Below are positions 8,721 through 62,007 of a stretch of DNA of 64,000 nucleotides, one piece after another. The stretch comes from Patescibacteria group bacterium (GTDB taxonomy: Bacteria > Patescibacteriota > Dojkabacteria > GCA-002793355): positions 317,716 through 381,715 of the forward strand of contig BOKM01000001.1 in NCBI GenBank assembly GCA_016860985.1. The letters are read 5' to 3'. Numbering within the stretch: position 1 is the first letter of the stretch; each line of letters begins with the position of its first letter. Made by a program: the position numbers and the translations under genes. Under the pieces are notes generated by a model that searched no databases, was not told the DNA's origin, and was given only the letters and a program-made list of their open reading frames with translations.

Positions 8721-8723
8721 CCC

Positions 8724-12095: not shown

Positions 12096-12164
12096 TACCA
12101 ATACAGGTCAGAGACTCGTACCCTCGACTCGACAAACGTAAGGTCATAAGTGCTATAATTACCG

Positions 12165-13976: not shown

Positions 13977-13979
13977 CGT

Positions 13980-14357
13980 ATGTACATTTTAGGTATTGAT
14001 TTTGGAACAAAGAAGCTAGGGCTTGCAATCCTTGAATCTACTACGCAGATTTGCAGTCCGCTTCCTTTGCTTCAGAACGATAAAGAGATGTGGGAGAACC
14101 TACAAAAGGTTATTTCCGAGTATCGAGTCACACATATTATTCTTGGGCTCCCCTCTTACGAAGAAACGGCAAAAAAAGTTGAGCGTTTTAAACAAAACCT
14201 TCTCAGTAAATTTGCGGTTAATGTCGATTATTCCCCCGAAGATCTCACTTCGTTAACAGTAAAAAAGCAATTGACTTCTAAAAAACAGAAGCAGAATCTA
14301 GACTCGTATAGCGCTGTCGCGATCCTCGAACAATGGGCGAGCAGCAATATTAATTAA
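13980..14357 (+). CDS. ruvX: Holliday junction resolvase-like protein RuvX/YqgF
   Basis: N-terminus MYILGIDFGTKKLGLAILE is typical of YqgF/RuvX. 125 aa. Conserved position after alaS. Confidence 0.8.
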   Translation: MYILGIDFGTKKLGLAILESTTQICSPLPLLQNDKEMWENLQKVISEYRVTHIILGLPSYEETAKKVERFKQNLLSKFAVNVDYSPEDLTSLTVKKQLTSKKQKQNLDSYSAVAILEQWASSNIN

Positions 14358-14368
14358 TACAGCAAAAA

Positions 14369-15481
14369 ATGGCATTTTACTCTGGAAAAATGGTAAAAGA
14401 ACAATCAAAAAAGCGTTCACCACTTGGAATCATACTTGCAGCATTATTTCTTATCGGAGTAGCAGCTATTGGCGTTGCGCTCAATACTCCTTCTATTAAG
14501 ACCAAGATTGACACGTACAAGTGCTATTGGGACGGAACACTAATCACAAAGAATCAAAGCGACAGAACTGACATTCAACCAATAACCATTGTTTCAGGGC
14601 AAGATCCACTTTCTGTAGGTCGTCTTCTTCAAGAAAAAGGTGTTATAAAAAATGCTAGCGACTTCCTTTGTTATGTTCATAAAATTAATGCTGGAGATAA
14701 AATACAGGCGGGCTATTACGAAATTCAACTTCCAATTTCAATCGAACAACTTGTACCATACCTTCAGAGCTCAAGAATTCCAACGGCTCGAATGACAATT
14801 CCAGAAGGACTCAGATACGACGAAGTTGCGGACAGGATAGATACAGCACTTGGGAAAGAAAACGCAATAAAGAAGTTTAATAAAGATGAGTTTCTTACCC
14901 TTGCAACTAATAGTGAAATACTTGCAGAACTCCCCTATCTTAAAGGCAAACCCTCAGCCGAAGGGTTTTTATTCCCTGATACGTATGAAGTCGCCAAAAA
15001 TGCAACAAGCAGAGAGGTTTTTGACTTGCTTATAGGCACATTCAAGAGAAAAGTAATTGACGGAAGTGAACTTTCCTCCTCTAAAGAGTTAACCCCTTAT
15101 CAGGTAATTACTCTTGCGTCGATTATCGAAAAAGAAGCTGGTAAATCCTACGAAGAAAAAAGAATAGTTGCCGGTATCTTATTGAAACGTATGAAAAATG
15201 ATTGGCTTCTTCAGGTTGATGCAACCTTTTTATACGAGAAAAAAGATTGGAAGGCAGTTATCTATCAGCAGGATAAACTAAGCAACTCTGCCTACAACAC
15301 ATACAAACGCATGGGGCTACCGCCTACTCCTATTTCAAATCCAGGCTTAGACAGTATCAACGCAGTACTTGACCCGCAAGAGAGTAAATATTGGTACTAT
15401 CTTCATGGCACAGACGGGGGCATCAGATATGCGCAAACAAACGAAGAACATATACGAAACATAGACTTGTATTTGCGTTAA
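14369..15481 (+). CDS. mltG: endolytic murein transglycosylase MltG (YceG family)
   Basis: N-terminal TM, then a YceG-like domain with a conserved GLPPTPISNPG-type motif and LYSM-like fold. Conserved alaS-yqgF-yceG order. Confidence 0.8.
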   Translation: MAFYSGKMVKEQSKKRSPLGIILAALFLIGVAAIGVALNTPSIKTKIDTYKCYWDGTLITKNQSDRTDIQPITIVSGQDPLSVGRLLQEKGVIKNASDFLCYVHKINAGDKIQAGYYEIQLPISIEQLVPYLQSSRIPTARMTIPEGLRYDEVADRIDTALGKENAIKKFNKDEFLTLATNSEILAELPYLKGKPSAEGFLFPDTYEVAKNATSREVFDLLIGTFKRKVIDGSELSSSKELTPYQVITLASIIEKEAGKSYEEKRIVAGILLKRMKNDWLLQVDATFLYEKKDWKAVIYQQDKLSNSAYNTYKRMGLPPTPISNPGLDSINAVLDPQESKYWYYLHGTDGGIRYAQTNEEHIRNIDLYLR

Positions 15482-15502
15482 CTTCTGTGCGACAATGACC
15501 TC

Positions 15503-16936
15503 ATGAACCTACGATTTAAACGAACAAAAAAGACGGACCCAACTCACCTTGATCCTGAGACGAGCGACCAACCAGCGATTTCAAAGGTAGCCAAAAAGAA
15601 CAACCCTGGAATGAGATTTATTGGATTAGTCCTCCGCATATTTGCTTTTCTGATTCCGCTTGCGTTAATCGGCGCTGCAGTACCGTATGCAATAATGCAA
15701 AGTTCAAACGTTTTACAACCATTTTTCAAAGCAGCAAATTTTACTGTTAATGGAAGTTCAACAGCATTTTCAACGTTGAAAAAAGAACCTACACTAAGAA
15801 AGGATGCTAATAACATGACTAACGTGCTGATTGTTGGTATCGATACCAGAGCGAAAGGCAGCAAGTTACTAAATACAGATACAATCATTCTTGCATCTTA
15901 CAATCACCGAACAAATGAGGTCGCAATGATCTCTTTTCCAAGAGACTTAAATGTAAACTATCCAAACACACCAAGTATCGGAAAGATTAACGCAACCTAC
16001 GCTTACGGAGAGATGAGAAAAGATGGTGGCGGGATTGAATATCTCAGACAGCTTATCGAATCAATTTCAGGTCAGAAAATTCAGTATCATGTTATGGTAG
16101 ATCTAAAAGGGTTTACTACAATCATAGATTTGCTAGGTGGGGTCGATGTTAATGTAGACACTGCATTTACTGGTGACTATCCGACCGAAACATATGGATG
16201 GACAACTGTCACTTTCAAGAAGGGTGTCGTGCATATGAATGGAAACAAAGCACTCCAATACGCCCGAATACGACATGCTTACCCTTACTCAGAAGCTTCT
16301 GACTTTGCTCGTGCAAAAAGACAGCAAAAAGTTATTCAAGCTGTAATTGATAAAGCCACTAAAGTAGACACGCTTCAAAATACAAAGAAGATTTTTGAAA
16401 TCCTTGGTGCGGTAGCACAAAATATCAAGATAAACCGAGTGACTCCAGAAGACATTGAAGCAGGACTTATGATCTTAAAAGACAAAGGCAAGCCAGTATC
16501 GTACTCAATGGTTCTTGACCCTGCTGCCGGTGGTTATGGCCGCTTAATTAAGCGTGGCGCAGGTTATCTTTACACACTTGAACCAACCGCAGGCAAAAAC
16601 AACTGGAGCCAAGTAAAATCGTTTATAAAAGATTATGCTGCCGCTCCTGGGCTTGTTACTCTGAAATCTCCAATTTATGTTTATAACAACGGAAAAGATA
16701 ACTATAACTCTGCCTTTAGCAACATGAGCAATCGCTATTATTATGCCGACTTCCGCAACGGCGGTTCTCAAAAGAATTTACCGAAAACAGGAGTTTACAA
16801 TATTGGTGGAAGTAAGTCGGCAACCGCGGCACAATATCTTGCCAACACATACAAAATTCCATTGCAAACTGTTGACGATACTGTTTCTGTTCCAAAACCA
16901 AAGGGAGCAGCAATTGTCATAGTGTTAGGAAAATAA
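15503..16936 (+). CDS. LytR-CpsA-Psr (LCP) family cell-wall polymer transferase
   Basis: TM anchor followed by LCP core NVLIVGIDTRA...RTDTIILASYN...SFPRD. Confidence 0.75.
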   Translation: MNLRFKRTKKTDPTHLDPETSDQPAISKVAKKNNPGMRFIGLVLRIFAFLIPLALIGAAVPYAIMQSSNVLQPFFKAANFTVNGSSTAFSTLKKEPTLRKDANNMTNVLIVGIDTRAKGSKLLNTDTIILASYNHRTNEVAMISFPRDLNVNYPNTPSIGKINATYAYGEMRKDGGGIEYLRQLIESISGQKIQYHVMVDLKGFTTIIDLLGGVDVNVDTAFTGDYPTETYGWTTVTFKKGVVHMNGNKALQYARIRHAYPYSEASDFARAKRQQKVIQAVIDKATKVDTLQNTKKIFEILGAVAQNIKINRVTPEDIEAGLMILKDKGKPVSYSMVLDPAAGGYGRLIKRGAGYLYTLEPTAGKNNWSQVKSFIKDYAAAPGLVTLKSPIYVYNNGKDNYNSAFSNMSNRYYYADFRNGGSQKNLPKTGVYNIGGSKSATAAQYLANTYKIPLQTVDDTVSVPKPKGAAIVIVLGK

Positions 16937-16939
16937 CGC

Positions 16940-17860
16940 ATGCTTACGTTAATAGCTACAGGAGACAGAGAATCTGACTTGTACCATTGGTACGAAGTAC
17001 GTGAAAAACATCCGGAGTTAAAAAGTATTCCAAGTATCGACGCCTCGACACCTCAAGGCGCAGCAGAGTTTGCACGTCGAGTTGAAACTATCTCATTTTT
17101 TGGTAACACAGATATCATTGTTGCTCATTCTGTTGAGATAACCCCGCAATTAGTTCACCTCATCCATGAATATACAGGCACTATTTACATTGTGACAACG
17201 GTAGGAAAAGTACCAAAAACACTACAAGCAAAAAGCGCTTTTGACAAATGCACCGACCAGATGCTAAAGAACCTCATTTCAACAAGACTTCGAACACTAT
17301 CCCTCTCGCCGACGAAAGAAGATATGGCAAAGCTCTATTTTACACTCTCAATTGAGGAGTATTCCGGTAAAGAAAGACTCTCACCACTTCGTTGCCGTAC
17401 GTTAGTAAGACAGCTTATGACTATAGAAGGAAGCACACCAGAAGATGCAAGAAAGTTATTCACAAATTTGATTGGCTTAGTGGAAGGCAAAGCTAGCCAA
17501 TGGGAACTTCTTGCTAACTTGTTTACAACGCAAAAAAGAAAACAAAAAGAGTACTTTCAGTCGCTGTCCGAACTCATGACACCCTACGAAATCATGTCTC
17601 ATGCGAAATCAACATTGCTCTTGGTATATGCCATCATGCTTGGACGCAAAGACCATCTCGATTCAGCATCAATTGCAACAAAACTTGGTAAGCACCCCTT
17701 TTATATAAGTTCCCTACTTAGGACTGTAGAAGAAAAAGGCATTACCATAGACAAGGTCAAGAAAATACTAAGCCGTCTTCTGAATTTAGAAATGGCTTTA
17801 AAGTCAGGAAAATTCGATGACGAGTATTTTGGTTTCGAAGTGCTGCTCGCAACAATGTAG
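16940..17860 (+). CDS. hypothetical protein (weakly reminiscent of DNA polymerase III delta subunit)
   Basis: 306 aa, helical. The N-terminal LIATGDRESDL loosely resembles the holA N-terminus. Not confirmed. Confidence 0.3.
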   Translation: MLTLIATGDRESDLYHWYEVREKHPELKSIPSIDASTPQGAAEFARRVETISFFGNTDIIVAHSVEITPQLVHLIHEYTGTIYIVTTVGKVPKTLQAKSAFDKCTDQMLKNLISTRLRTLSLSPTKEDMAKLYFTLSIEEYSGKERLSPLRCRTLVRQLMTIEGSTPEDARKLFTNLIGLVEGKASQWELLANLFTTQKRKQKEYFQSLSELMTPYEIMSHAKSTLLLVYAIMLGRKDHLDSASIATKLGKHPFYISSLLRTVEEKGITIDKVKKILSRLLNLEMALKSGKFDDEYFGFEVLLATM

Positions 17861-17861
17861 A

Positions 17862-18281
17862 CTACCTAAGTTGGAATGGATTCCCATTAATTCCATACCA
17901 CTCGCCCTCCGATACGACGATAACATACCGATAGGACAATTCATCTTGTTTTAGTAAAGAAACCGAATGAGATGTTGATGGTGATTCTCCATTCGCAGAA
18001 AGTACCTTATATGGCAATGATGAGAAATCTGCATATGATTTGCCCAGCAAAATAAACCCTGTGCAAGCTTCGCGTGTTTCCCAAGTTATCTTCATTCGTC
18101 CGACGTCATCTGTATCTATCGTGAATTGCGAGGGCTCACAAGGCTGTTTGACGGTATTGTCTGAACTTACTAAATACTCTTGTTCTCGTACGTATTTTAC
18201 CCACAAAAATGCCATTATTAAGGGAATTAGCAATGATAAGACTACGCCAATTAACGCAATTTTTCTTAGTAACTGCTTCAT
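17862..18281 (-). CDS. membrane-anchored/secreted small protein with FN3-like (purple-acid-phosphatase-N-like) motif
   Basis: N-terminal TM helix IALIGVVLSLLIPLIMAFLWV; motif MKITWETREACTGFILLGKSY. Confidence 0.4.
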   Translation of the reverse strand: MKQLLRKIALIGVVLSLLIPLIMAFLWVKYVREQEYLVSSDNTVKQPCEPSQFTIDTDDVGRMKITWETREACTGFILLGKSYADFSSLPYKVLSANGESPSTSHSVSLLKQDELSYRYVIVVSEGEWYGINGNPFQLR

Positions 18282-19006
18282 TATCTGTGACCGCGTTCAA
18301 TAACGATGCCCTTTGGTAATTTACTTCGGTTGCCCATCGCGTTTTTCATTATTTTTACCAAGATAGAACCTACGGTAAAAATCAGCACAATACCTACAAC
18401 TAAAAGAAGATATGTTTGTTGTCTATCAGACAAAAATGGTTGAGCTGTCGCTACTGTAGATTCTCCTAATACTTCTTCTAGCTCCGAAGTTGTTGCGTCT
18501 GGCAATACCTGAGCATTTCTTGTTGGAATTACTACACTATTAGGATGGAAGGGATCTTGCCAAATAGCGACTGTTTTTGCACCTTTAACATCTGCTTCTG
18601 GGGTATCAATCGTTACAGTGAACGTTTGATCTTGCACATCACCGGCAATAGTTGCTGCTCGAACGGTAATTGTGAATACTCCACCAACAGAAGGGACCGT
18701 GCCGGTTAACTGTTGTGTCTCAGGAATCCAACTGACCCAATCTGGCTTTGCGAGTACAGATAGTGTCACTTCACTACCTGAAAGTGAGGTCGCTAACACT
18801 TTATAGACAAAGGTTGAATCTGCAGAAACAAGGATTGGAGGGACTGAAATATATCGAATATCGTCGACCACAGCGACCTCAGTAGGTGTAGGTGTAACTG
18901 TTGCTGTATTTTTTGTGGGATTAAGCACTTGCTGAAGCAACATCGGTAAACCAAACGTTACCATAAGAATAAGTAAAACGACGAAAAACTTCAGACCTGA
19001 CCTCAT
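18281..19006 (-). CDS. cell-surface protein with Ig-like domain and C-terminal TM anchor
   Basis: Signal/TM at N-terminus and a Thr/Pro spacer. Motif LAKPDWVSW resembles AKPAWASV of the 1123-aa protein. C-terminal hydrophobic helix plus basic tail. Confidence 0.45.
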   Translation of the reverse strand: MRSGLKFFVVLLILMVTFGLPMLLQQVLNPTKNTATVTPTPTEVAVVDDIRYISVPPILVSADSTFVYKVLATSLSGSEVTLSVLAKPDWVSWIPETQQLTGTVPSVGGVFTITVRAATIAGDVQDQTFTVTIDTPEADVKGAKTVAIWQDPFHPNSVVIPTRNAQVLPDATTSELEEVLGESTVATAQPFLSDRQQTYLLLVVGIVLIFTVGSILVKIMKNAMGNRSKLPKGIVIERGHR

Positions 19007-19052
19007 AATGAATTAGTGTAGCACAGATGTTTCAAGTAAGGTATACTTTGTT

Positions 19053-19607
19053 ATGAATGATTTTTTGAAGCGCTTTATCGAACACTCACTGTTCGCAGCT
19101 ACCTTTATGGTGCTTCTAAAAATTGTTGGGGTATGGGTCGCTTTGCTGGCAACAAAAACAGATTTTGCCTTAGAAAGTGCTGCACAAGTTTTCACGTACA
19201 TTACAGTACAATCGACACAGCAAGTTACCCAAATAACAACCTTTGCCGACGCATTTTTTGTCGTTGCACTCATCCTTGCTGGAATAACAGTACTTGTAAA
19301 AACAACCTATTTTAACGACTTAACACGTCATCCAAGAGTGCTCGTAAAAGTAATTCACTACAACCTTACCGGCTGGTTAGAAGACGGACAAGGCATGTAC
19401 CCTAAACTTTTTGCATGGGGAACCTTTCTTTGGCTTGCAACTGTGCTCGTTATACGCGACTACATGACTGCGGGTATTCCTATTGCACTGCCATTTGGGA
19501 TGGGTACATTTGCAGTGCTCTACACTTATCAAGTATTCCGATTCTTAGATACACATATTTCAGATATGATAAGCTACCTATATGGCACAAAACGAAAAAT
19601 CACCTAA
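19053..19607 (+). CDS. integral membrane protein (4 predicted TM helices)
   Basis: Hydrophobic segments throughout the 184-aa ORF. Confidence 0.4.
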   Translation: MNDFLKRFIEHSLFAATFMVLLKIVGVWVALLATKTDFALESAAQVFTYITVQSTQQVTQITTFADAFFVVALILAGITVLVKTTYFNDLTRHPRVLVKVIHYNLTGWLEDGQGMYPKLFAWGTFLWLATVLVIRDYMTAGIPIALPFGMGTFAVLYTYQVFRFLDTHISDMISYLYGTKRKIT

Positions 19608-20160
19608 TGCCCCTCATATTTTTGGCGACCTCGCACTCACCGCGGTCGCAGTAAGTGTCGTTGCACTCACCTACTTTGGCGTTGCAGGACTTACTCCAAA
19701 GTCCACACAGCAAATAGCATTGAACAACAATGTACTTGGGGTGACTACAAAACAAAAAGTGCTCAACTATTTTCCCGCCACCACAACCAATCTCGCATTT
19801 GTAAGCAATTATACACTCTCTGGAAATACCACAATGTCGGGCGACGCTTCACTTGTAATTAGCTTTTCACCCCTTGAAGCAACCAACTACTCATTTACTG
19901 CGTTAACAATTAAAAACACCTCATCGGAATATCGAAAAGTTCAACTTACCCCAACCTTCTCGCTCGACGGTTCATATACTTCAATTCAAGTGACGTATGC
20001 AGGCGCAACAACTGAGATTATCACGCCACAGGGGGTAGTTAATCCTATCGATTTGGTTGTTCCTCCTTCTTCTGCAACAGACATTTCGCTGACACTTCAA
20101 CCAACTATTCGACTCGCAACACCTGTTTCGTTAACGTTGGACTTTACGGAAGCCCCTTAA
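19582..20160 (+). CDS. membrane-anchored secreted hypothetical protein (beta-rich)
   Basis: N-terminal TM LALTAVAVSVVALTYFGVAG, then a Thr/Ser-rich beta-like domain. Overlaps the upstream gene by 26 nt. Confidence 0.4.
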   Translation: MAQNEKSPNAPHIFGDLALTAVAVSVVALTYFGVAGLTPKSTQQIALNNNVLGVTTKQKVLNYFPATTTNLAFVSNYTLSGNTTMSGDASLVISFSPLEATNYSFTALTIKNTSSEYRKVQLTPTFSLDGSYTSIQVTYAGATTEIITPQGVVNPIDLVVPPSSATDISLTLQPTIRLATPVSLTLDFTEAP

Positions 20161-20178
20161 TTTGGCATAATTCGCCTA

Positions 20179-21981
20179 ATGACAGAGTTAGACAAGATTC
20201 GTAATTTTTGTATTATCGCGCATATTGATCACGGCAAGACGACCTTAACCGATAGAATACTTGAGTTAACATCAACCCATCACAAGCGGCAACTTGAACA
20301 ACAAGACCGTCTTACCGATGTTTTAGAAATAGAACAAGAAAGAGGAATTACAATTAAACTGCAGCCAGCAACGATGCCATGGAAAGGGCATCTCCTGAAC
20401 TTAATCGATACCCCAGGACATATTGACTTTACTTACGAAGTATCGCGATCGATGAAAGCCTGTGAAGGTGCACTCCTTTTAATTGATGTGACTCAAGGGG
20501 TTCAGGCACAAACCATTTCGAACATGTTGCTCGCAATGGAGGCAAATTTGGAAATAATCCCCGTGCTCAACAAAATAGACATTGGGGAACATCTTATAGA
20601 AGAGCGCCTAGAGGAGATTGAGCAAATACTCGGATTTAAACGCCACGAGGTCATTTTGGCATCGGGTAAATCTGGGCAAGGCGTTGCCGAAATGTTGGAC
20701 GAAGTAGTTTCGAAAGTTAAGCCTCCTACCGCCTCAGCAATACCTACTACACAAGCCCTTGTATTTGATTCAATATTCGATGAGCACAAGGGTATTATTG
20801 CCGCTATAAGGCTTTTTTCGGGAACAATCAAAAAGGGTGAACCGTACACCTTGATTAATACACAGACAAAGTTTATTGCAAAGAGTGTCGGCACCTTCTC
20901 CCCCAAAATGGTAGAAACTGAAGAGCTTACCGAAGGCATGGTTGGCTATATAGCAACAGGAATAAAAGATGTTAAGCAGGTACGTATTGGCGACACAATT
21001 GCACTCAAAGCGACAGACACTGCAATCTCAGGCTTTGATAAGCCAGCCCCAAAAGTATTTGCTTCACTTTACCCTGAAAATAAAGAAGATTATATTTTGC
21101 TTAAAGAGAGTATCCAAAAACTCTCCCTTAACGACGCTTCGTTGAGCATTCAAGAAGATTATTCCCCACTCCTTGGGCAAGGATACCGTGTTGGGTATTT
21201 AGGGCTGCTGCATCTTGAAATCACAAAAGAAAGATTAGAAAGAGAATTTTTAGTTGATACTGTTGTTACCGTACCAAGCGTCGAATACCATGCAACGTTA
21301 CATAACGGTGAAAAGATTCAGATTAAGTCTGCCTTTGATTTACCACCGTTGCCCTCAATAAAACTACTGGAAGAACCCTTTATCAAAGCGGAAATCCTAA
21401 CTCCAAGTGACACGATGTCATCCATATACGACATCATTATGGAATATAGAGGAGTCATAATGAATACGAAAGATACCTTTACTTCGCACGTGAGTAACTT
21501 GAATTACGTAACACTGGAAATTGATATGCCATATGCAGAACTGCTTAAGGGGTTCTTTTCCGTTATGAAGAGTGCAAGTCACGGTTATGCCTCGTTACAA
21601 TATGGGAACTTTACATACAAGCCAACCCAACTTGTGAAGGTTGATGTTCACGTGAATCATGATATTGTTCCTCCACTTTCGTTTCTTGAGATTCCTGAGC
21701 GCGCTAGGGACCGAGCCGTTTCAATGCTCGAGACACTAAAGAAATCTATTCCCCCACATATCTTCTCTATTCCACTACAAGCAATGGTTGGAGGAAAAGT
21801 ACTGGCACGAGAAGATGTTGCCGCTTACAAGAAAGACGTGACTGCGAAACTTTATGGTGGTGATATTACACGAAAAATGAAGCTTAGAAACAATCAGCAA
21901 AAGAAGAAACGCGAAATGAAAATTACTGGCAAAGTAAGAATTCCGAGCGAAGCCTTTATCAAGATTATCAACTCGAATTAA
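20179..21981 (+). CDS. lepA: elongation factor 4 (LepA)
   Basis: NFCIIAHIDHGKTTLTDRIL, DTPGHIDF, NKID, and LepA C-terminal domain. 600 aa. Confidence 0.9.
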   Translation: MTELDKIRNFCIIAHIDHGKTTLTDRILELTSTHHKRQLEQQDRLTDVLEIEQERGITIKLQPATMPWKGHLLNLIDTPGHIDFTYEVSRSMKACEGALLLIDVTQGVQAQTISNMLLAMEANLEIIPVLNKIDIGEHLIEERLEEIEQILGFKRHEVILASGKSGQGVAEMLDEVVSKVKPPTASAIPTTQALVFDSIFDEHKGIIAAIRLFSGTIKKGEPYTLINTQTKFIAKSVGTFSPKMVETEELTEGMVGYIATGIKDVKQVRIGDTIALKATDTAISGFDKPAPKVFASLYPENKEDYILLKESIQKLSLNDASLSIQEDYSPLLGQGYRVGYLGLLHLEITKERLEREFLVDTVVTVPSVEYHATLHNGEKIQIKSAFDLPPLPSIKLLEEPFIKAEILTPSDTMSSIYDIIMEYRGVIMNTKDTFTSHVSNLNYVTLEIDMPYAELLKGFFSVMKSASHGYASLQYGNFTYKPTQLVKVDVHVNHDIVPPLSFLEIPERARDRAVSMLETLKKSIPPHIFSIPLQAMVGGKVLAREDVAAYKKDVTAKLYGGDITRKMKLRNNQQKKKREMKITGKVRIPSEAFIKIINSN

Positions 21982-22592
21982 TCGAGCGACGTGAGTGAGG
22001 CGTAAAAAGCAACGACCGCAAGTGCAACATGTACATTGATGGATCCGCCTTTTCCATACATTGGTATCACCACCGCTCGATCAACTGCTGAGATTGTCTT
22101 TTTCGAGAGTCCGAACATTTCACTGCCCACCACAAATGCAATTTTTGTTGGGTAAGATATTTCTGTATACAATTGTGACTCTTCGCACTGTTCAATGGCA
22201 ACTACTTCGTATCCTTCTTTTTTAATTTCAGCAATCGCTTCTAAAGTCGACTCTCTATATTCCCACGAAACAACTTTCTCCTTTCCTCTTGATACTTTTG
22301 ATAAGTCTTTTCCAAACGGTGGGCGGTGAGATTCTCCTGTTAGGAATATCTTTTTTGCTTTTAACGCGTCTGCAATTCGGAACAAGCTCCCTACATTTCG
22401 GGCATAAGACATATTTTCGGCAATCAAAACTATCTCTCGCTGCTGCTTATATTGCTTATTGGTCTTTTTGACCGCTTTTGGTGAAAGTTTCGTCATCATA
22501 TCGTGAGAGTATACGAGGTGTTCCCCATGTTGTAAACTCTGAACGAAAAACTTTCGCAGGAGAAAACGTAAGTTGACGCTCTGCCTTAGCAA
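21978..22592 (-). CDS. SpoU/TrmH-family RNA 2'-O-methyltransferase (true start likely at internal Met near 22499)
   Basis: SPOUT motifs: VLIAENMSYARNVGSLFRIADA, VVGSEMFGLS, VVIPMYGKGGSINVHVALAVV. The first 31 codons overlap the upstream gene. Confidence 0.7.
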   Translation of the reverse strand: MLRQSVNLRFLLRKFFVQSLQHGEHLVYSHDMMTKLSPKAVKKTNKQYKQQREIVLIAENMSYARNVGSLFRIADALKAKKIFLTGESHRPPFGKDLSKVSRGKEKVVSWEYRESTLEAIAEIKKEGYEVVAIEQCEESQLYTEISYPTKIAFVVGSEMFGLSKKTISAVDRAVVIPMYGKGGSINVHVALAVVAFYASLTSLD

Positions 22593-23277
22593 TCATCAAT
22601 ACACCAGCAATGTAATCGAGCGCATCAAAAAATACATCCCAAACAGACTTCTTATGAGAAGCTGAGGTTGCATTCTTTATCACCTCTAGATTTCGGGTAT
22701 ACCAGGTCGGAAAATATTTTTCTATCCATTGGTTCTGCTCAAGCAGTAACCGATACTCTCCAATATCTTTAATGTAAAGAGGGATTGCATCTACAAATTG
22801 CATCGCATAAGACGCCGTTTCTTTTTTCAGATGTAGGGAATCAAGCGTTGAGTAGAAATTAAAACAAAGCTTATCGTTTACCCGCGACTCTTCAACTCCA
22901 TCACGTGCCAAACGACGTTTTCCGATTAATGTATAAAGAAAAAAATCAATTGCTCTTGTTAGCCAAATTCTCCTAGGATTTACGATAATCCATACATCGA
23001 TATCATCCTGTGGTTCAGCGTTAAGTGAGGCAACAGAACCTGTAATAAAGAGCATTCGTACCCAAGGAAGGTAGGTTAACCATTTTAAAACTTTTCTTGC
23101 CGCGTCGATTTTGGCCAATGAATATCTGACTTTCTTTTGCAAGGACTCATCCAGCTCATTTGTGCTAGATTCATTACCAATATAGCGTGGGTATTCAATT
23201 CTCGTGTACCTCCAGCAATCAACTGGCCATCCAAAAGAATGTTTAACCTCTTGAAGTATTTCAAATTCTCTAGTCAT
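22456..23277 (-). CDS. Pol-beta-superfamily nucleotidyltransferase-like protein
   Basis: GS-x(n)-DxD signature ITGSVASLNAEPQDDIDVWIIV followed by a helical C-terminal region. 273 aa. Confidence 0.4.
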   Translation of the reverse strand: MTREFEILQEVKHSFGWPVDCWRYTRIEYPRYIGNESSTNELDESLQKKVRYSLAKIDAARKVLKWLTYLPWVRMLFITGSVASLNAEPQDDIDVWIIVNPRRIWLTRAIDFFLYTLIGKRRLARDGVEESRVNDKLCFNFYSTLDSLHLKKETASYAMQFVDAIPLYIKDIGEYRLLLEQNQWIEKYFPTWYTRNLEVIKNATSASHKKSVWDVFFDALDYIAGVLMIAKAERQLTFSPAKVFRSEFTTWGTPRILSRYDDETFTKSGQKDQ

Positions 23278-23317
23278 TACTCGCAGATTTCCAATATTTT
23301 TGCTACACTAGCGTAAC

Positions 23318-24136
23318 ATGTATGAACACGCAATTCCACAGAACATCATGGAGTATGAGTTTGAGCTTTTTGCAGGCTTAACTCTCAAGCAATTTATCTA
23401 CGTCGCAGTATCGGGCGGGTTTGCCTTTGGTTTATACGAATTAAACAGAGCTGGCCTTTTTCCCGCTTTCTTTGCATGGATTACTATTCCAATAATCCTT
23501 TTGGTTGGCGTCACACTTGGCTTAGGCTCGTATCAAAAACGAACAATGGAAGATTGGTTCAATGCATTTGCCAAAGCAAATGCGCTAACCCTTCGCCGAG
23601 TATGGAAAAAAGATACAAAAGCAGTTACTCACGATAATTTTCATGCGACAAAACCGCACTCGCTTCCTTCGTACCTTGCGGTGTATTTTATGAACCAAGA
23701 CGAGTTTACGCGATTAATGCGCAACAAAGGGGCAATAGAGGATTCTCATGAACCTACCACTATCGTACAGCCACTTCTTCACGCAGAGAATATCCCAACC
23801 ATTCAAGAGGTTATTCAACTTACTCAAGCTAATGCCTCAGATTTTGCGGAACCTGGTGTAACGCTTCCAGCAATACCAAACACGATTGCCTTCAAGTTAC
23901 AAGAAGATAATCTTCCAATGGAAGGTGTAGTCGCCTATGTAAAAGATGCCAATATGAGCGTCGTCGGTGCGCTTCGAAGTAACAAAGATGGCATTGTTTA
24001 TTTTAATCAAGGATTTCAGAACGGAGATTACGAAATCGAATTTCAATCGCCAGAAGCTGCAACGTTTCCGAAAGTGAGAGTGCAATTTCAAGGTCTCACT
24101 TACCCACTTATTAATATATCACCAACAGGTTCATAA
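23318..24136 (+). CDS. VirB3/PrgI-like membrane protein with C-terminal extracytoplasmic domain (T4SS-like module)
   Basis: Two adjacent N-terminal TM helices (FIYVAVSGGFAFGLY and FFAWITIPIILLVGVTLGLG). Lies immediately upstream of the VirB4-like genes. Confidence 0.4.
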   Translation: MYEHAIPQNIMEYEFELFAGLTLKQFIYVAVSGGFAFGLYELNRAGLFPAFFAWITIPIILLVGVTLGLGSYQKRTMEDWFNAFAKANALTLRRVWKKDTKAVTHDNFHATKPHSLPSYLAVYFMNQDEFTRLMRNKGAIEDSHEPTTIVQPLLHAENIPTIQEVIQLTQANASDFAEPGVTLPAIPNTIAFKLQEDNLPMEGVVAYVKDANMSVVGALRSNKDGIVYFNQGFQNGDYEIEFQSPEAATFPKVRVQFQGLTYPLINISPTGS

Positions 24137-24138
24137 TT

Positions 24139-24768
24139 ATGGCACTCGGTCCAGGGCAAAGCCCCATAACTCAAGGTACGCAAGATATTCTTGAAGTAGC
24201 GGACATCATGAATGATTTGCTCATTACTCGAAATGGAACCGTTTGTTTAATCTTAAAAACTTCTTCAGTAAACTTTGACCTTTTATCCGAAGACGAGCAA
24301 GACATTAAAATTGCATCCTTCGGTTCTATGGTTAACTCACTCGACTTTCCTCTACAAATTCTTATTGAAACAAAGAAAATTAACATCAGTAAATATGCTG
24401 ACTTTCTAGATACAATGGACACTCCAGACCTTAGCCCCGGACTAAAGCGCCAATTTACGGTTTATAAACAGTTTATAAGAAACCTTATTACAAATAAGGA
24501 AATCCTCGATAAACGTTTTATGATTGTGATTCCCTATAGAACAGGTACCTCTGTTGCGCCAAACGCAACAATCGAGCAAAAACAGAAGCTAATCGAGAGC
24601 GCGACAGGCTATTTGTATCCAAAAAAATATCACGTGATAAAAATGTTAAAAGGCATGTCGCTTGAAGCTGAGCAGATGTCGAACAGCGAAATTGCCAAGT
24701 ATCTTTATTCAGTTTACAACCCAGCGGACTCAATCCGTTTAGATGATTTACCTCAAATATACGTATAA
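24139..24768 (+). CDS. VirB4 N-terminal-domain-like protein (first part of a split VirB4, or separate accessory)
   Basis: LLITRNGTVCLILKTSSVNFDLLSEDEQD resembles the N-terminal region of VirB4/TrbE ATPases. Its stop TAA is followed 1 nt later by the ATG (24770) of the ATPase gene. Confidence 0.45.
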   Translation: MALGPGQSPITQGTQDILEVADIMNDLLITRNGTVCLILKTSSVNFDLLSEDEQDIKIASFGSMVNSLDFPLQILIETKKINISKYADFLDTMDTPDLSPGLKRQFTVYKQFIRNLITNKEILDKRFMIVIPYRTGTSVAPNATIEQKQKLIESATGYLYPKKYHVIKMLKGMSLEAEQMSNSEIAKYLYSVYNPADSIRLDDLPQIYV

Positions 24769-26638
24769 TATGGCACTCCTCGACTTATTCAATAAAAAAA
24801 AACCAACTCAAACTGCAGAACAAGGAGCACAACCTCAAGTTGAGCAGCAGCAATCAGATCCAAACCCTGACTTTAGTATTCAGGACCTGCTTGCTCCGCA
24901 ATATTACGAGATTGATTTTAATCACGTGCAGATTAACAAGCGTTATTACAGAATTCTCATGATTACGGACTTTCCTCGTGTAGTCCGTTCTACATGGCTT
25001 TCTCCACTAGTAAACTTTGAATCTTCACTTGCAATCAGTACGTTCTACTACATCGTTGATTCAGACGAAGTTATTGATAAGCTCAAGAAAAAAATTGCAG
25101 AACTCGAAGCAACTCTTTCGACACAATACGAAAAAGGTGTAGTTCTTGATCCTAAGAGTAAAGTCGCCTATCAAGATGCCCAAGAACTTATCGACAATGT
25201 TGCATCAGGCAAGGAAAAATTCTTTAACATGGGAATGTATATTCGTCTTAATGCAGACGATCTTACAACACTTGAGAATATTTCTAAGAATGTTATCTCG
25301 ACACTCAAGGCAATCGGACTTTCTGCAGTCCCACTTACGCTAAAAATGCACGACGGATTCGATACAACACTTCCATATGCACTCGACAAAATATATCGTG
25401 TTCGAAACATGGATACGACCTCTATTGCAATGACCTTTCCCTTTGTTACGTCGGACCTTACCATGGACAGAGGAATTCTTTACGGCGTCAACATGCACAA
25501 CAACAGTATGGTTATTTTCGATAGGTTTAGCATGCCTAACCTAAACGAAGTAGTTTTCGCGACTTCTGGTGCAGGAAAGAGCTATTTTGTAAAACTTGAA
25601 GCCTTGAGATATTTGCTTACAGGTACGCAAGTGATGATTATCGACCCTGAAAACGAGTATGAAAAACTTGCTAAATCGGTAGATGGCGAATACATTACCT
25701 TTACTCAAGACGAAGGCGCAAAAATTAATCCCTTTGAGTTCCTAAAGTCTTCAAAAGATGGCGTAAGAAACGTCCTTCGCGACAAAGTATTAAGCCTCCA
25801 CTCGTTTATTAAATTACTCCTTGGAGAACTAACAAATGTCGAAGTTTCAATTCTCGACCGCGCCTTTATCCTTACGTATAACGAAAAAGGCATCAACAAC
25901 GACCCTGAAACATGGAATAACAAGCCACCACTGCTCGAAGATTTGTATAAGATTCTCAAAGGTATGGCAGAACCTGAGGCGCGAGCACTTTCAGGCCGGT
26001 TAGAAAAGTATGTTTTTGGAAGTGCTGCCGGCGTCTTTAACCAAGAGACAAATATCGACATCAAGAACAAATTTACAGTATTTAGCATTCGTGACCTTCA
26101 AGATGATCTCCGTCCAATCGCCATGTATATGGTGCTCGATTTCATCTGGACTCGAGTACGTGAAGATATAAGACCAAGAATCCTTGTTGTCGACGAAGCC
26201 TGGACCATGATGCAATACGAAGATTCCGCACGCTTTATTTACGGTATCGCAAAGCGAGGCCGAAAATATTACCTTGGGCTAACGACTATCAGTCAAGATG
26301 TTGATGAATTCTTAACGTCAAAATATGGAAAAGCGGTAGTAACCAACTCAAGCTTGTCGCTTCTACTTAAACAGAGCCCTGCTGCGGTTGATTTAGTCGT
26401 AAAAACCTTTAACCTCTCTTCCGGAGAGCGATCATTCGTATTGAGCGCTAAAACAGGAGAAGGGCTATTCTTTGCCGGAAGAAGCCATGTAGGAGTTTCA
26501 ATTATTGCAAGTAGAGCCGAACATAGACTTATCACCTCAAATCCAAAAGAACTCGCAAAAATGAAATCACAGAGTACAGAATTTTCTGAGGACGATATTT
26601 CAGAGGGAGCCTTAGTTTTTGAGCAAGGAAGTGAATGA
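24743..26638 (+). CDS. VirB4/TraE-like type IV secretion ATPase (probable true start ATG at 24770)
   Basis: Central VirB4 segment RYYRILMITDFPRVVRSTWLSPL; Walker A FATSGAGKSYF; Walker B ILVVDEAWTMM; sensor LTTISQ. Confidence 0.8.
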   Translation: MIYLKYTYNMALLDLFNKKKPTQTAEQGAQPQVEQQQSDPNPDFSIQDLLAPQYYEIDFNHVQINKRYYRILMITDFPRVVRSTWLSPLVNFESSLAISTFYYIVDSDEVIDKLKKKIAELEATLSTQYEKGVVLDPKSKVAYQDAQELIDNVASGKEKFFNMGMYIRLNADDLTTLENISKNVISTLKAIGLSAVPLTLKMHDGFDTTLPYALDKIYRVRNMDTTSIAMTFPFVTSDLTMDRGILYGVNMHNNSMVIFDRFSMPNLNEVVFATSGAGKSYFVKLEALRYLLTGTQVMIIDPENEYEKLAKSVDGEYITFTQDEGAKINPFEFLKSSKDGVRNVLRDKVLSLHSFIKLLLGELTNVEVSILDRAFILTYNEKGINNDPETWNNKPPLLEDLYKILKGMAEPEARALSGRLEKYVFGSAAGVFNQETNIDIKNKFTVFSIRDLQDDLRPIAMYMVLDFIWTRVREDIRPRILVVDEAWTMMQYEDSARFIYGIAKRGRKYYLGLTTISQDVDEFLTSKYGKAVVTNSSLSLLLKQSPAAVDLVVKTFNLSSGERSFVLSAKTGEGLFFAGRSHVGVSIIASRAEHRLITSNPKELAKMKSQSTEFSEDDISEGALVFEQGSE

Positions 26639-27477
26639 CCCCGCGAATCAAATTACAAGAGTTTGTTTTTATCGGTAGTCTTATTTGCGTTTCTGTTATT
26701 GGGATTGTTCTGCTCTCTTCACAAAAAGATTTAAGCTCAAAAGACTCACAAGCTGCAAGCGGAAATATATTCGACGTAACAGTACCGGCCAATCAACCAA
26801 CCAATACTCCTACTCCCTCAGTTACCAAAAGCGCAAAGGCTCAAGACGTGCCACTTAAAGTACTAGGCCGAAAAGAGATTGGAGAACAATCGTACTTGTA
26901 CACAGAGCTCGCAAGCAAAGGACTAATCTCAAATGTTGCTGCAGACAACGTTACCATACACTGGTTAACAGAAGCTCCACAACAAACAAAATTATATTAC
27001 GGAAAAAAGGAAAACCTACTCATTAAACAGTTTTCCGACTCAGATTACAGCTATATTCATACCGCTAAATTGGAAACACTTACCCCAAATACACTCTATT
27101 ATTACTCTGGTCACGCGCCAATTACCGAAAGCTTTGTTTCAGCTCCGCAACTTCCCGTTGCCCCAGCACTCTTAACCTTGCAAGGCACAATTTCGAAACA
27201 GGCCGGCGAATGTCTGATTCGCGCCATAATAAGCAATGAAAACAAAGCTTCTTCTTCAATGACTGCTGCATTTAAAGGGAGTGAATGGAAACTTGATTTG
27301 AAAGGGATTAGGAGCGCCGATTATTCTGCATATTACACACCTAATAGCAACGACTCCGTTGAGTTTGACGTACTTTGTATCGATAATAATAAATCCGTAT
27401 CTAGCGCCAAAAAGAAAGTTTTATACCGCCAAGCAGTGTCACAAACTACCAGTATTGTGCTTGTTAATGAGGATTGA
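26635..27477 (+). CDS. membrane-anchored secreted protein with FN3-like (purple-acid-phosphatase N-terminal type) domain
   Basis: N-terminal TM; VTIHWLTEAPQQTKLYYGKK...LTPNTLYYY pattern. Its start overlaps the VirB4 stop (ATGA). Confidence 0.45.
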   Translation: MTPRIKLQEFVFIGSLICVSVIGIVLLSSQKDLSSKDSQAASGNIFDVTVPANQPTNTPTPSVTKSAKAQDVPLKVLGRKEIGEQSYLYTELASKGLISNVAADNVTIHWLTEAPQQTKLYYGKKENLLIKQFSDSDYSYIHTAKLETLTPNTLYYYSGHAPITESFVSAPQLPVAPALLTLQGTISKQAGECLIRAIISNENKASSSMTAAFKGSEWKLDLKGIRSADYSAYYTPNSNDSVEFDVLCIDNNKSVSSAKKKVLYRQAVSQTTSIVLVNED

Positions 27478-27510
27478 GCGCGAATCGCAAATTTGGTATA
27501 ATACGCAGTT

Positions 27511-27597
27511 GGAGGGGTGGCCGAGTGGTTGATGGCGTCAGTCTTGAAAACTGATGTAGGGTTTTCCCTACCGTGAGTTCGAATCTCTCCCCCTCCG
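27511..27597 (+). tRNA. tRNA-Ser (anticodon TGA), class II with long variable arm
   Basis: Hand-folded: acceptor GGAGGGG/CCCCTCC, 3-bp D stem, anticodon stem TCAGT/ACTGA with loop CTTGAAA, 19-nt variable arm, T loop TTCGAAT (one U-U mismatch in T stem). No encoded CCA. Followed by a T-run. Confidence 0.85.
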
Positions 27598-27731
27598 TTT
27601 TTTTCTTGCTGTGACCTGAGCAAATTATCCTCCTTCCATTTATTCTCGGGCACTTAAACACCTTGATTCACCTTCAATACTCTGCTATAAAGACCTTCCA
27701 AGTGAATAATCTATAAAAAAAGCCCTATAAC

Positions 27732-59268: not shown

Positions 59269-59284
59269 CAGGCCAAAACAACTA

Positions 59285-59749
59285 CTAGTCCATTCCTAAC
59301 AATTCGCGGACACCACTTGAAACATTAGAGAGTACATTACCGCCATTTCTGTATAATTCAGAAACAATCGCCACACTCAACAAGTCATTATCTTTTGGTG
59401 ATTGATAACCAACCTTTCTTTTTAGATTAGTCATCAATTGTTCTTCGTCTACACCATCACCAAATATACTGTTACGTCGAAGAGGTTCAGCACATACACT
59501 ATCCGCAGCTACACTATCCTGAACTGCGATTTTTAGCATATTCAATTTCCCAACATGCTTTAGTGCCTCTTGTACTTCCAAGGTTTGCAAACCAAATATC
59601 GCCCCCGAATCACGCTCTTTGAGTTTGGCAATTCGCTCAAGTTCAACTCCAAGAGCTCCTAAAGAAGCCACACCTTCTCTAAATTTTACTTCTCCAAGCG
59701 CTCTAAACGAGCTTTCCTCTGTGGGTTCACTTAAATGTGGTGTTGTCAT
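59285..59749 (-). CDS. hypothetical protein
   Basis: 154 aa, helical; no motif. Confidence 0.35.
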   Translation of the reverse strand: MTTPHLSEPTEESSFRALGEVKFREGVASLGALGVELERIAKLKERDSGAIFGLQTLEVQEALKHVGKLNMLKIAVQDSVAADSVCAEPLRRNSIFGDGVDEEQLMTNLKRKVGYQSPKDNDLLSVAIVSELYRNGGNVLSNVSSGVRELLGMD

Positions 59750-59773
59750 ATCGAATTATACAATACCGAACCA

Positions 59774-61968: not shown

Positions 61969-62007
61969 ACTCTATTATAATTGCTTAGTTAAAAATAGCA
62001 ACGAACG

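Follow-up and report, generated by a model that had tools for sequence, protein, structure and literature searches.

Gene content and organization of the locus

The DNA analyzed, henceforth referred to as the window, is a 64-kb stretch (64,000 nucleotides) from a Candidatus Dojkabacteria (WS6; CPR/Patescibacteria) MAG, and not from the Saccharibacteria to which an earlier sequence-only reading had pointed. Four tightly packed genes, all on the + strand, span positions 23318–27477 and are followed by tRNA-Ser(UGA). Gene 1 (23318–24136) encodes a 272-aa PrgI/VirB3-family protein, recognized by HMM and an AF2 model; gene 2 (24139–24768) a 209-aa TrsD-like protein, recognized by HMM collinearity and synteny; gene 3 (24770–26638) a 622-aa VirB4-class ATPase, recognized by HMM, motifs and a PDB match; and gene 4 (26635–27477) a lineage-specific, membrane-anchored protein of 280 aa, characterized by Pfam and predicted structure. 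Genes 1 and 2 are separated by 2 nt and genes 2 and 3 by 1 nt, the latter counted from a gene 3 start at 24770, while the stop of gene 3 and the start of gene 4 overlap in an ATGA. The ORF coordinates, gaps and ATGA confirm the earlier description of four co-oriented, close-packed genes with the last two overlapping.

The mechanical ORF of gene 3 begins at 24743 and encodes 631 aa; an alternative ATG at 24770 yields 622 aa. The latter is most likely the true start because the 622-aa product matches NCBI entry MFZ6022085.1 exactly; with that start, genes 2 and 3 do not overlap.

The tRNA-Ser gene (anticodon UGA, + strand, 27510–27598) was identified by both ARAGORN and Rfam and lies directly after gene 4, as had been proposed. 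It has its own promoter-like site at 27474–27502 (TTGAGC-17-TATAAT with TG). On the other flank, a divergent gene of 273 aa (22456–23277, − strand) starts 40 bp from the start of gene 1. Its position and strand agree with the earlier description of a nucleotidyltransferase-like gene, while its family assignment is tentative: the Pfam matches to NTP_transf_2 (E = 0.011), Polbeta and Adenyl_cycl_N are weak and sub-threshold (E 0.005–0.05), a GS...DDID motif is seen, and no PDB or NCBIfam match was found. A homologue adjoins PrgI in nine genome loci and in relatives L084–L091, making it a conserved neighbor in Dojkabacteria only.

The VirB4-class ATPase

The gene 3 product scored 363.8 bits (E = 1.8e-108) against the NCBIfam model conju_CD1110 (NF045971), above the curated cut-off of 325. 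Scores against sister families were 14.4 bits for HerA, 37.8 bits for CedB (E = 8.6e-10) and 11.7 bits for SXT_TraD. An FtsK, HerA or Ced identity, which would have undone the VirB4 assignment had it scored better, was rejected on these values. Among Pfam families, CagE_TrbE_VirB (34.6 bits; cut-off 21), P-loop_TraG (86.3 bits; cut-off 25.8) and AAA_10 all exceeded their cut-offs, and PDB 4AG5, the VirB4 C-domain, was matched at 2.5e-46.

The motifs quoted in the sequence-only reading are present in the translation (SGAGKS, VVDEAW, TTISQD and YYRILMITDFP) and are invariant in 13 homologues. With residues numbered from the 631-aa ORF starting at 24743, Walker A (tested as [AG]x4GK[ST]) is ATSGAGKS at 273–280 and Walker B (tested as hhhhDE) is VVDEAW at 482–487; A273, G276–S280 and D484–W487 are unchanged in all 13 sequences, indicating intact Walker motifs.

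A total of 7890 homologues of gene 3 were found, the closest named Dojkabacteria/WS6. The best 120 of the 7890 are 54–97% identical, and where their source names carry a taxon it is always Dojkabacteria, WS6 or Patescibacteria, the few others being generic "bacterium" labels. The best plasmid matches are actinobacterial and Bacillaceae (monoderm) VirB4s at 29–37% identity. On sequence grounds, gene 3 is assigned to the monoderm, CD1110-type VirB4 ATPases.

The TrsD-like protein and the two-part VirB4

Gene 3 alone does not have the full-length architecture of a single-polypeptide VirB4, the N-terminal domain being encoded elsewhere: it covers positions 183–733 of the 752-position CD1110 model. 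On the full-length VirB4 model NF045975 (Mbov_0397, 894 positions), gene 2 aligned to 106–279 and gene 3 to 284–879. Since a TrsD-type split is known, genes 2 and 3 together account for the VirB4 architecture, and gene 2 is assigned by this collinearity as the VirB4 N-terminal domain, made as a separate, soluble, TrsD-like polypeptide. Its match to the NCBIfam TrsD/TraD model NF041427 is near full-length (model positions 15–200 of 201) but at 24.7 bits (E = 1.7e-5) falls far below the curated cut-off of 200, a point against the explanation favored below. By sequence it is a distant relative of the TrsD/TraD family and not an equivalog; homology is supported by the length of this match, the collinearity with VirB4 models, the PF26593 matches of its orthologues and its identity to a Firmicute counterpart, the last two described next. 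Gene 2 had no match in the local Pfam copy or in a PDB sequence search; its orthologues in relatives carry a precomputed match to PF26593 (TraC-like).

On a Pontibacillus plasmid, VirB4 is preceded by a 274-aa gene with which gene 2 shares 25% identity (E = 4e-24). The layout of TrsD plus VirB4, found also on this Firmicute plasmid, is ancestral and does not reflect a recent break. Recent splitting or pseudogenization of VirB4 was considered and rejected: the ~800-aa VirB4s of other Dojkabacteria are not TrsD fusions and differ instead by N- and C-terminal tails, and a separate TrsD is present at every such locus for which the data include the upstream flank. The "split VirB4" described earlier is therefore correct as a two-part protein and incorrect as a lineage-specific break, the layout being ancient.

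The PrgI/VirB3-family membrane protein

Gene 1 scored 43.5 bits against PrgI (PF12666), for which the Pfam gathering threshold is 27. Its AF2 model begins with an N-terminal helical hairpin (helices 23–44 and 50–69), of which only the second helix passed a strict hydropathy cut-off. The family score and the hairpin uphold the earlier call of a two-TM VirB3/PrgI-like protein. A low-confidence linker then leads to a C-terminal transthyretin/CnaB-like beta-sandwich at approximately aa 165–267, a domain found on PrgI Patescibacteria-wide. This sandwich is predicted to be cytoplasmic, which conflicts with the usually extracellular location of CnaB-like folds and is a point against the explanation favored below.

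Conservation of the locus in relatives

Most of 91 related loci among the matches listed, drawn from several Patescibacteria classes, have the PrgI-TrsD-VirB4 order. Of 83 loci from Dojkabacteria, Microgenomatia and Paceibacteria, again among the matches listed, 67–78 keep it: the PrgI gene adjoins TrsD-VirB4 in 67, and VirB4 has a gene 2 homologue immediately before it in 78. The relatives listed by a contig scan were at most 59% identical, and closer ones were retrieved singly. Within Dojkabacteria the wider neighborhood is conserved as lepA-(spoU)-g0-PrgI-TrsD-VirB4-tRNA-Ser, where g0 is the gene upstream of PrgI. A lack of conservation of the flanking genes would have spoken against a secretion module; PrgI and TrsD are instead conserved with VirB4 in related genomes. 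In nearly all comparisons VirB4 was at least as highly conserved as the translation factor LepA (identities of 93 vs 81%, 85 vs 79% and 57 vs 48%), and TrsD conservation was likewise equal to or above that of LepA.

tRNA-Ser and the question of an island

The earlier reading had raised the possibility that tRNA-Ser marks an island boundary. Its 3′ half has no duplicate within the window, and the tRNA is a conserved syntenic neighbor in Dojkabacteria, following VirB4 in L001 and L084–L091. GC content is flat across the window (0.40–0.42), no meaningful repeats were found there, and a search of the window for ICE or conjugative features (relaxase, T4CP, integrase/recombinase, att repeats, compositional anomaly) returned none. 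An island bounded by tRNA-Ser was rejected on the unduplicated 3′ half, the lack of repeats, the flat GC and the conserved synteny; likewise, the module is not considered an island because it has housekeeping neighbors, flat GC and no repeats, integrase, relaxase or coupling protein.

The same observations bear on the view that an integrative conjugative element once entered at tRNA-Ser and that the module is its decayed remnant. The module does adjoin a tRNA gene, only three T4SS genes are left, and in one relative (L085) a serine-recombinase element is inserted at the 3′ end of this same tRNA-Ser. However, the module lies upstream of the tRNA 5′ end, opposite to the L085 element, and Dojkabacteria keep its gene order and housekeeping flanks even where VirB4 identity falls to 57%. 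VirB4 is conserved as strongly as LepA, the reading frames are all intact with invariant catalytic motifs, and there is neither a GC shift nor a direct repeat or tRNA fragment. The remnant view is effectively refuted.

Gene 4 and the slot after VirB4

The gene 4 product is predicted to comprise a signal-anchor helix (aa 3–28), a disordered stalk rich in P and T, and a pair of beta-sandwich domains, one FN3/PAP-N-like and one macroglobulin-like, with an invariant Cys pair. The signal-anchor helix and a Pur_ac_phosph_N score of 30.8 bits (cut-off 30) agree with the membrane-anchored FN3/PAP-N-like protein described earlier. Identification as a purple acid phosphatase was rejected: the match concerns only the non-catalytic N-terminal sandwich, and the predicted model consists of two beta-sandwiches with no metallophosphatase domain, which also disposes of an enzymatic reading.

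Between VirB4 and tRNA-Ser, close relatives have gene 4, a GSDH propeller or a CYTH protein, or no gene at all. Rather than a core subunit, gene 4 probably encodes a rapidly diverging surface protein that occupies this variable slot, and its earlier inclusion as a module member gives way to that of a patchy occupant whose partnership is not demonstrated. A genuine lineage-specific T4SS component, bitopic and wall-spanning or host-contacting, is unlikely. Such a component would stand in for VirB8/PrgL-type bitopic subunits or a PrgB-like adhesin, with the FN3 pair and the GSDH propeller swapped between lineages to match hosts. The start of gene 4 overlaps the VirB4 stop and has a Shine-Dalgarno-like motif (AAGGAAG) ahead of it, but gene overlap is commonplace in these compact genomes. 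The family sits directly after VirB4 wherever it is found, down to 26% identity, and in L001 and L086 the other slot occupant is likewise N-terminally membrane-anchored and overlaps VirB4; however, L085 and L091 lack gene 4 and have an intact VirB4, a CYTH-domain protein of a usually cytoplasmic family takes its place in L089, and 80 genome loci from other Patescibacteria gave no match to it. Its very fast divergence (26–74% identity where VirB4 is 79–97%) is expected of a host-contact surface, the FN3-like domain is shared with giant surface proteins, and a VKOR/DsbA system lies within the window alongside the invariant Cys pair. Against this, the fold is unlike known T4SS subunits and the slot abuts a tRNA gene at which an element has integrated in a relative.

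Components sought in the window

Scanning of ~55 window proteins with Pfam and NCBIfam found no VirB6/TrbL, VirD4/T4CP, relaxase or integrase families, confirming the absences noted earlier. Hydropathy scanning of the whole window turned up no polytopic protein of at least five TM segments. Neither the 64-kb window nor the ±10-kb surroundings of any Dojkabacteria locus examined yielded a VirB6-, VirB2-, VirB1- or VirB8-like gene, a point against the explanation favored below. A search for VirB6, VirB2, VirB1, VirB8 or T4CP among the other window proteins, with the small membrane proteins at 17862–20160 and 60475–61968 included, likewise found none.

VirB4, TrsD (1,664 near virB4) and PrgI/VirB3 have been surveyed across Patescibacteria, where they occur without a relaxase (Quiñonero-Coronel et al. 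2025, PMC12102498). In that survey the Patescibacteria VirB4s form a monophyletic clade nested in MPF-FATA, and VirB6 and VirB2-like pilins are often encoded near virB4. Measured against it, TrsD and PrgI/VirB3 lie beside a chromosomal virB4 here with no relaxase nearby, and VirB6 with VirB2-like pilin(s) was not found within the 64-kb window; some Patescibacteria classes have few or no recognizable components of this kind (PMC12102498).

Comparison with known systems

The locus resembles the Patescibacteria-clade T4SS (PMC12102498; PMC10633639; reviewed in PMC12857230) in encoding VirB4 on the chromosome beside TrsD and PrgI/VirB3, in its housekeeping context with no nearby relaxase or coupling protein, and in its closest homologues, which among the matches listed are Patescibacteria wherever the source name gives a taxon. 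It differs in having a lineage-specific FN3-pair gene after VirB4 and in that neither VirB6 nor a VirB2-like pilin array or wall hydrolase lies within 64 kb, as is also the case within ±10 kb in other Dojkabacteria loci. Unlike SEML1_0006–0019 of Southlakia epibionticum, it adjoins lepA and tRNA-Ser and not dnaA/dnaN.

Monoderm MPF-FATA modules with a separate TrsD, such as TrsC-TrsD-TrsE of pGO1/pSK41 and the CD1110-family VirB4 of CTn2, share the series of a small PrgI/TrsC-like membrane protein, a TrsD-like protein and a ~620-aa VirB4 (29–37% identical). The Pontibacillus plasmid NZ_CP062975 (L092) is an example, with proteins of 116 aa, 274 aa (TrsD-like) and 621 aa (VirB4). Unlike the present locus, MPF-FATA clusters also contain pilin-like, VirB6-like and peptidoglycan-hydrolase genes, the true conjugative elements add a relaxase and T4CP, and their PrgI (~116 aa) has no C-terminal transthyretin-like domain. 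Classical VirB/D4 systems (A. tumefaciens VirB, R388 Trw) share the VirB3–VirB4 inner-membrane partnership and the Walker A/B core with a PDB 4AG5-type fold, whereas the present locus, from a monoderm organism, has a separate VirB4 N-domain polypeptide and no outer-membrane core (VirB7/9/10), VirB11 or VirD4. The archaeal Ced system (CedB) similarly has a VirB4/HerA-superfamily ATPase without a relaxase and a possible import role, but here CedB scored 37.8 bits against a cut-off of 700 and CedD 25.3 against 600, and no CedA/CedA1/CedA2-like partners were found.

Proposed function

The family identities, domain collinearity, synteny, conservation and absence of island marks observed at this locus accompany our main reading, held with a probability of roughly 0.8, that the genes at 23318–26638 form the cytoplasmic-membrane core of a Patescibacteria-type T4SS that is chromosomal, vertically inherited and of monoderm (MPF-FATA) descent. 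By analogy with R388/VirB and Gram-positive T4SSs, the gene 3 VirB4 would act as a hexameric assembly and translocation ATPase, the TrsD-like gene 2 product would supply its N-terminal, membrane-proximal domain in trans, and the hairpin of gene 1 would tether the ATPase to the membrane. The gaps of 2 and 1 nt fit with coupled expression and with the products being made in stoichiometric amounts. The other parts needed, namely a VirB6-like channel, VirB2-like pilins and a wall hydrolase, must lie outside the 64-kb window or be missing.

Because the window has neither an island signature nor a relaxase, coupling protein or integrase, the machine is on this reading not used for self-transfer; family scores, synteny and the literature bear out the earlier statement that this is not a classical conjugative element and favor the stripped-down apparatus of ultra-small episymbionts proposed with it. 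Most likely it forms a conduit or pilus for macromolecule exchange at the host-cell interface, by analogy with Saccharibacteria, in which the homologous genes are essential for epibiotic growth, and with the systems of Wang et al. (2023, PMC10633639) and Quiñonero-Coronel et al. (2025, PMC12102498). This function is extrapolated from a single saccharibacterial Tn-seq study, which found T4SS genes essential in Southlakia epibionticum (Wang et al. 2023, PMC10633639).

A somewhat unlikely alternative is that the PrgI-TrsD-VirB4 trio is a DNA/RNA import engine, and not an exporter or pilus machine, that feeds a nucleotide-auxotrophic epibiont in the manner of the archaeal Ced or H. pylori ComB systems. 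Patescibacteria lack nucleotide synthesis, import was proposed by the authors of PMC12102498, and a 2026 preprint ties VirB4 monophyly to host-RNA feeding; the window also has no relaxase or T4CP. The weak CedB match (8.6e-10) points the same way, but at 37.8 bits against a cut-off of 700 gene 3 is not a Ced member, and partners resembling CedA or ComB were not found. Protein export or another role was favored by Wang et al. (PMC10633639), and nothing in the window bears on direction.

The T4SS core favored here is real but already known: it matches the systems of Wang et al. (2023) and Quiñonero-Coronel et al. (2025), its proteins are already named by NCBI, and the partner set, earlier called uncharacterized, has been surveyed in both studies (PMC10633639; PMC12102498). 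A bolder and quite improbable extension is that Dojkabacteria have an unusually minimal T4SS, PrgI (with its transthyretin-like domain)-TrsD-VirB4 without a recognizable VirB6 or pilin, in which the post-VirB4 slot (FN3 pair, GSDH propeller, others) would hold membrane-anchored ectodomains that evolve rapidly, can replace one another and determine host specificity.

To date, the T4SS of Patescibacteria is the only one reported to be essential for the growth of its own carrier. The present locus is a clean Dojkabacteria example that leaves the picture published in 2023–2025 unchanged, and its details, namely the extreme conservation of VirB4 and TrsD, the PrgI sandwich and the variable slot by tRNA-Ser, are useful for modeling the minimal machine.

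Organization and identity of the genes

Four closely packed ORFs are read from the forward strand and are followed directly by tRNA-Ser(UGA) (27510-27598, +), as the sequence-only reading had described. They comprise a PrgI-family gene (gene 1, 23318-24136, 272 aa), a TrsD-like gene (gene 2, 24139-24768, 209 aa), a VirB4 ATPase gene (gene 3, 24743-26638, 631 aa) and gene 4 (26635-27477, 280 aa). Only 2 nt separate the gene 1 stop from the gene 2 start, and genes 3 and 4 share an ATGA, an overlap proposed earlier for the last two genes. Gene 2 ends at 24768, and an ATG at 24770 yields a 622-aa product; because this product is identical to NCBI protein MFZ6022085.1, the true start of gene 3 is probably 24770 and not 24743. 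The tRNA has a promoter-like site of its own (TTGAGC-17-TATAAT, 27474-27502).

Gene 3 scored 363.8 bits against the NCBIfam model "VirB4-like conjugal transfer ATPase, CD1110 family" (cut-off 325), compared to 14.4 for HerA, 37.8 for CedB and 11.7 for a coupling-protein model. P-loop_TraG, AAA_10 and CagE_TrbE_VirB were each matched above threshold in Pfam, and the only solved relative by sequence was the Thermoanaerobacter VirB4 ATPase domain 4AG5 (2.5e-46). Since neither FtsK nor HerA scored better, the VirB4 identity was retained. The VirB4 motifs quoted previously were all found in the translation and are invariant in 13 homologues. The best VirB4 homologues listed, at 54-97% identity, carry the names Candidatus Dojkabacteria, WS6 or Patescibacteria; the organism is thus a CPR bacterium, as had been supposed, and not a member of the Saccharibacteria. 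PGAP names the window proteins "VirB4-like conjugal transfer ATPase, CD1110 family" and "PrgI family protein".

Gene 2 had no match in the local Pfam copy and matched NCBIfam TrsD/TraD over its full length (15-200/201) at only 24.7 bits. On a full-length mycoplasma VirB4 model, gene 2 covers 106-279 and gene 3 covers 284-879. The two genes match one model in series and are therefore collinear with a single VirB4, gene 2 being the VirB4 N-domain encoded as a free polypeptide.

The VirB3/PrgI-like assignment of gene 1 was borne out by its PrgI-family score (43.5 bits, threshold 27) and by an AF2 model in which a helical hairpin (23-44, 50-69) precedes a C-terminal beta-sandwich (~165-267) predicted with confidence. 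Eight of the 36 residues following the second helix are Lys or Arg, and this charge distribution predicts a cytoplasmic C-terminal tail, in agreement with the known topology of VirB3. Such a placement of the sandwich is unusual for a transthyretin/CnaB-like fold. This domain, behind a variable linker, was detectable in 42 of 73 PrgI-like ORFs from the window and related loci L003-L083.

Conservation and ancestry of the gene trio

A scan of species-representative genomes returned at least 80 loci from Dojkabacteria, Microgenomatia and Paceibacteria-type MAGs; 83 were examined, 80 from the scan and 3 by exact protein look-up. VirB4 is immediately preceded by a TrsD-like ORF at 78 of these 83 loci, and at 67 a PrgI-like ORF comes before the TrsD-like one, so the flanking genes are conserved beside VirB4. 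Within Dojkabacteria the wider order lepA-(spoU)-g0-PrgI-TrsD-VirB4-tRNA-Ser is also conserved, g0 being the divergent gene upstream of gene 1. When window 20179-26638 was compared to loci L001, L003 and L084-L091, VirB4 identity equalled or exceeded that of LepA in nearly all pairs (93 vs 81%, 85 vs 79%, 57 vs 48%), with ranges of 39-98% for TrsD and 27-93% for PrgI. With order conserved and VirB4 at least as conserved as LepA in nearly all pairs, genes 1-3 bear the signature of a vertically inherited core function under strong constraint and not that of a mobile element in decay. An origin of the trio from a decayed ICE is effectively excluded.

The "split" VirB4 of the sequence-only reading stands as a two-gene arrangement, which is the ancestral layout within the monoderm MPF-FATA lineage. 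VirB4s of ~800 aa in other Dojkabacteria were considered as TrsD fusions and rejected, since 585 residues can be aligned with gene 3 and the differences are confined to the terminal tails; each such locus with a covered upstream flank has its own TrsD. The ancestral reading also rests on a Pontibacillus megaplasmid cluster (NZ_CP062975) with an identical layout, in which a 621-aa CD1110 VirB4 is preceded by a 274-aa protein that shares 25% identity with gene 2 and, before it, by a 116-aa protein whose sequence starts MYEYTVPQE. In contrast to the window, this cluster additionally encodes pilin-like, large membrane and peptidoglycan-hydrolase genes, and its short PrgI counterpart (L092:6754-7104) is devoid of the C-terminal transthyretin/CnaB-like domain.

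Genomic context

The locus is embedded among housekeeping genes, with alaS, ruvX, yceG, lytR, holA, lepA and spoU upstream and an alpha/beta hydrolase, an ECF sigma factor, dnaK-grpE and rpoBC downstream. GC content is flat (0.40-0.42), and no meaningful direct repeats were found in the window. A duplicated tRNA-Ser 3' half, raised earlier as a possible island boundary, was not found; the sequence occurs once in the window. VirB6/TrbL, VirD4, relaxase and integrase families were not detected among ~55 window proteins, in line with what had been stated, and a hydropathy scan detected no window protein with five or more TM segments. No VirB6-like or pilin-like gene was found within ±10 kb of virB4 at any Dojkabacteria locus examined.

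Gene g0 (22456-23277, -) starts 40 bp from the PrgI start and encodes a nucleotidyltransferase-fold-like protein with a GS...DDID motif; it is kept throughout Dojkabacteria and not in other classes, and comparison with protein families, PDB and NCBIfam gave it no assignment. Its 3' end is overlapped by ~137 nt by the mechanical SpoU methylase ORF (21978-22592, -, TTG start, 204 aa), the real start of which is probably further downstream because relatives are called at 169-173 aa. Between holA and lepA (17862-20160), four small membrane or secreted proteins without family assignment are kept in close Dojkabacteria: 139 aa with an FN3/PAP-N-like motif resembling gene 4, 241 aa (He_PIG), 184 aa with ~4 TM segments, and 192 aa. 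The 184-aa protein was not accepted as VirB6-like, being too small and too poorly supported. At 6553-12095, a sortase gene, a solute-binding protein and a 1,123-aa Big_9/cadherin-like surface protein (hydrophobic segment near aa 829-847) may form a sortase-substrate adhesin locus.

Gene 4 and the variable slot before tRNA-Ser

The earlier description of gene 4 as membrane-anchored and FN3-like agrees with its model, which shows a signal-anchor helix, a disordered Pro/Thr-rich stalk and two beta-sandwiches, and no enzymatic domain. A set of 5.8 billion proteins contains 8 clusters of this family, to which a profile search added only about a dozen full-length representatives. Other matches of the profile were some proteins of 500-590 aa with a C-terminal half like that of gene 4, and giant repeat proteins, in the thousands, which have just the FN3-like domain in common with it. 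The first beta-sandwich (aa 97-157) belongs to a repeat present in up to 25 copies in giant proteins of 1,000-6,321 aa. Two Cys are invariant in gene 4, and a VKOR homologue lies between two membrane-anchored DsbA/thioredoxin-like proteins at 58321-62904; this set, an extracytoplasmic disulfide-forming system, is consistent with the Cys pair.

Family members always overlap the VirB4 stop codon (L084, L087, L088, L090), and gene 4 identity is 26-74% where VirB4 identity is 79-97%. Among close Dojkabacteria relatives the slot can have another occupant: the stop is overlapped by a membrane-anchored GSDH/TrAA12 beta-propeller protein in L001 (11856-13124) and L086 (11845-13014) and by a CYTH-domain protein in L089 (6841-7491), and the slot is devoid of a gene in L085 and L091. 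The genome of L085, whose VirB4 is 85% identical to gene 3, is without a gene 4 homologue, and its tRNA-Ser(UGA) is 160 bp past VirB4. The 3' end of that tRNA is overlapped by the gene for a serine recombinase of 506 aa, with Replic_Relax, HTH_36 and HTH_26 genes after it (12048-21000), apparently a mobile element integrated at the tRNA. Given these alternative occupants and the L085 insertion, the VirB4-tRNA-Ser interval and the region past the tRNA are variable and the trio is not. By this comparison gene 4 is not a conserved partner of the trio. It is probably a fast-evolving surface protein in a variable slot, and a role as a dedicated T4SS accessory is the less likely rival.

Relation to described systems and proposed function

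Wang et al. 2023 (PMC10633639) used Tn-seq to demonstrate that Southlakia epibionticum cannot do without a T4SS in epibiotic growth; this unusual, Gram-positive-like system has pilins and is without a recognisable relaxase or coupling protein. A survey of 3,035 Patescibacteria genomes, including Dojkabacteria (Quiñonero-Coronel et al. 2025, PMC12102498), found VirB4 in 2,417, in a clade nested within MPF-FATA. TrsD was the commonest associated component (1,664 copies adjoining virB4), homologues of PrgI/VirB3 were widely distributed, there were hardly any relaxases, and location was chromosomal. The partner set, previously taken as uncharacterised, has thus been surveyed. A 2025 review (PMC12857230) lists the Patescibacteria system as a new T4SS type, and a 2026 preprint ties it to feeding on host RNA. 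From these sources and the PGAP names, the feature is an already described system, correctly recognised; the central reading of a stripped-down apparatus of ultra-small episymbionts holds with the corrections given here. Three small points may be new, namely the PrgI C-terminal domain kept across classes, the lack of VirB6-like or pilin-like genes near virB4 at the Dojkabacteria loci examined, and the variable slot beside tRNA-Ser, none strong enough to alter the classification.

That the system imports nucleic acid is a tentative possibility, rated below even odds. In the proposed mechanism, TrsD would supply in trans what a VirB4 hexamer needs to be complete and the PrgI hairpin would tether it, with channel and pilin components encoded beyond the window or undetectably divergent. 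VirB4, TrsD and PrgI would then make up the platform that energises, from the inner membrane, a non-conjugative T4SS at work at the host-cell interface.
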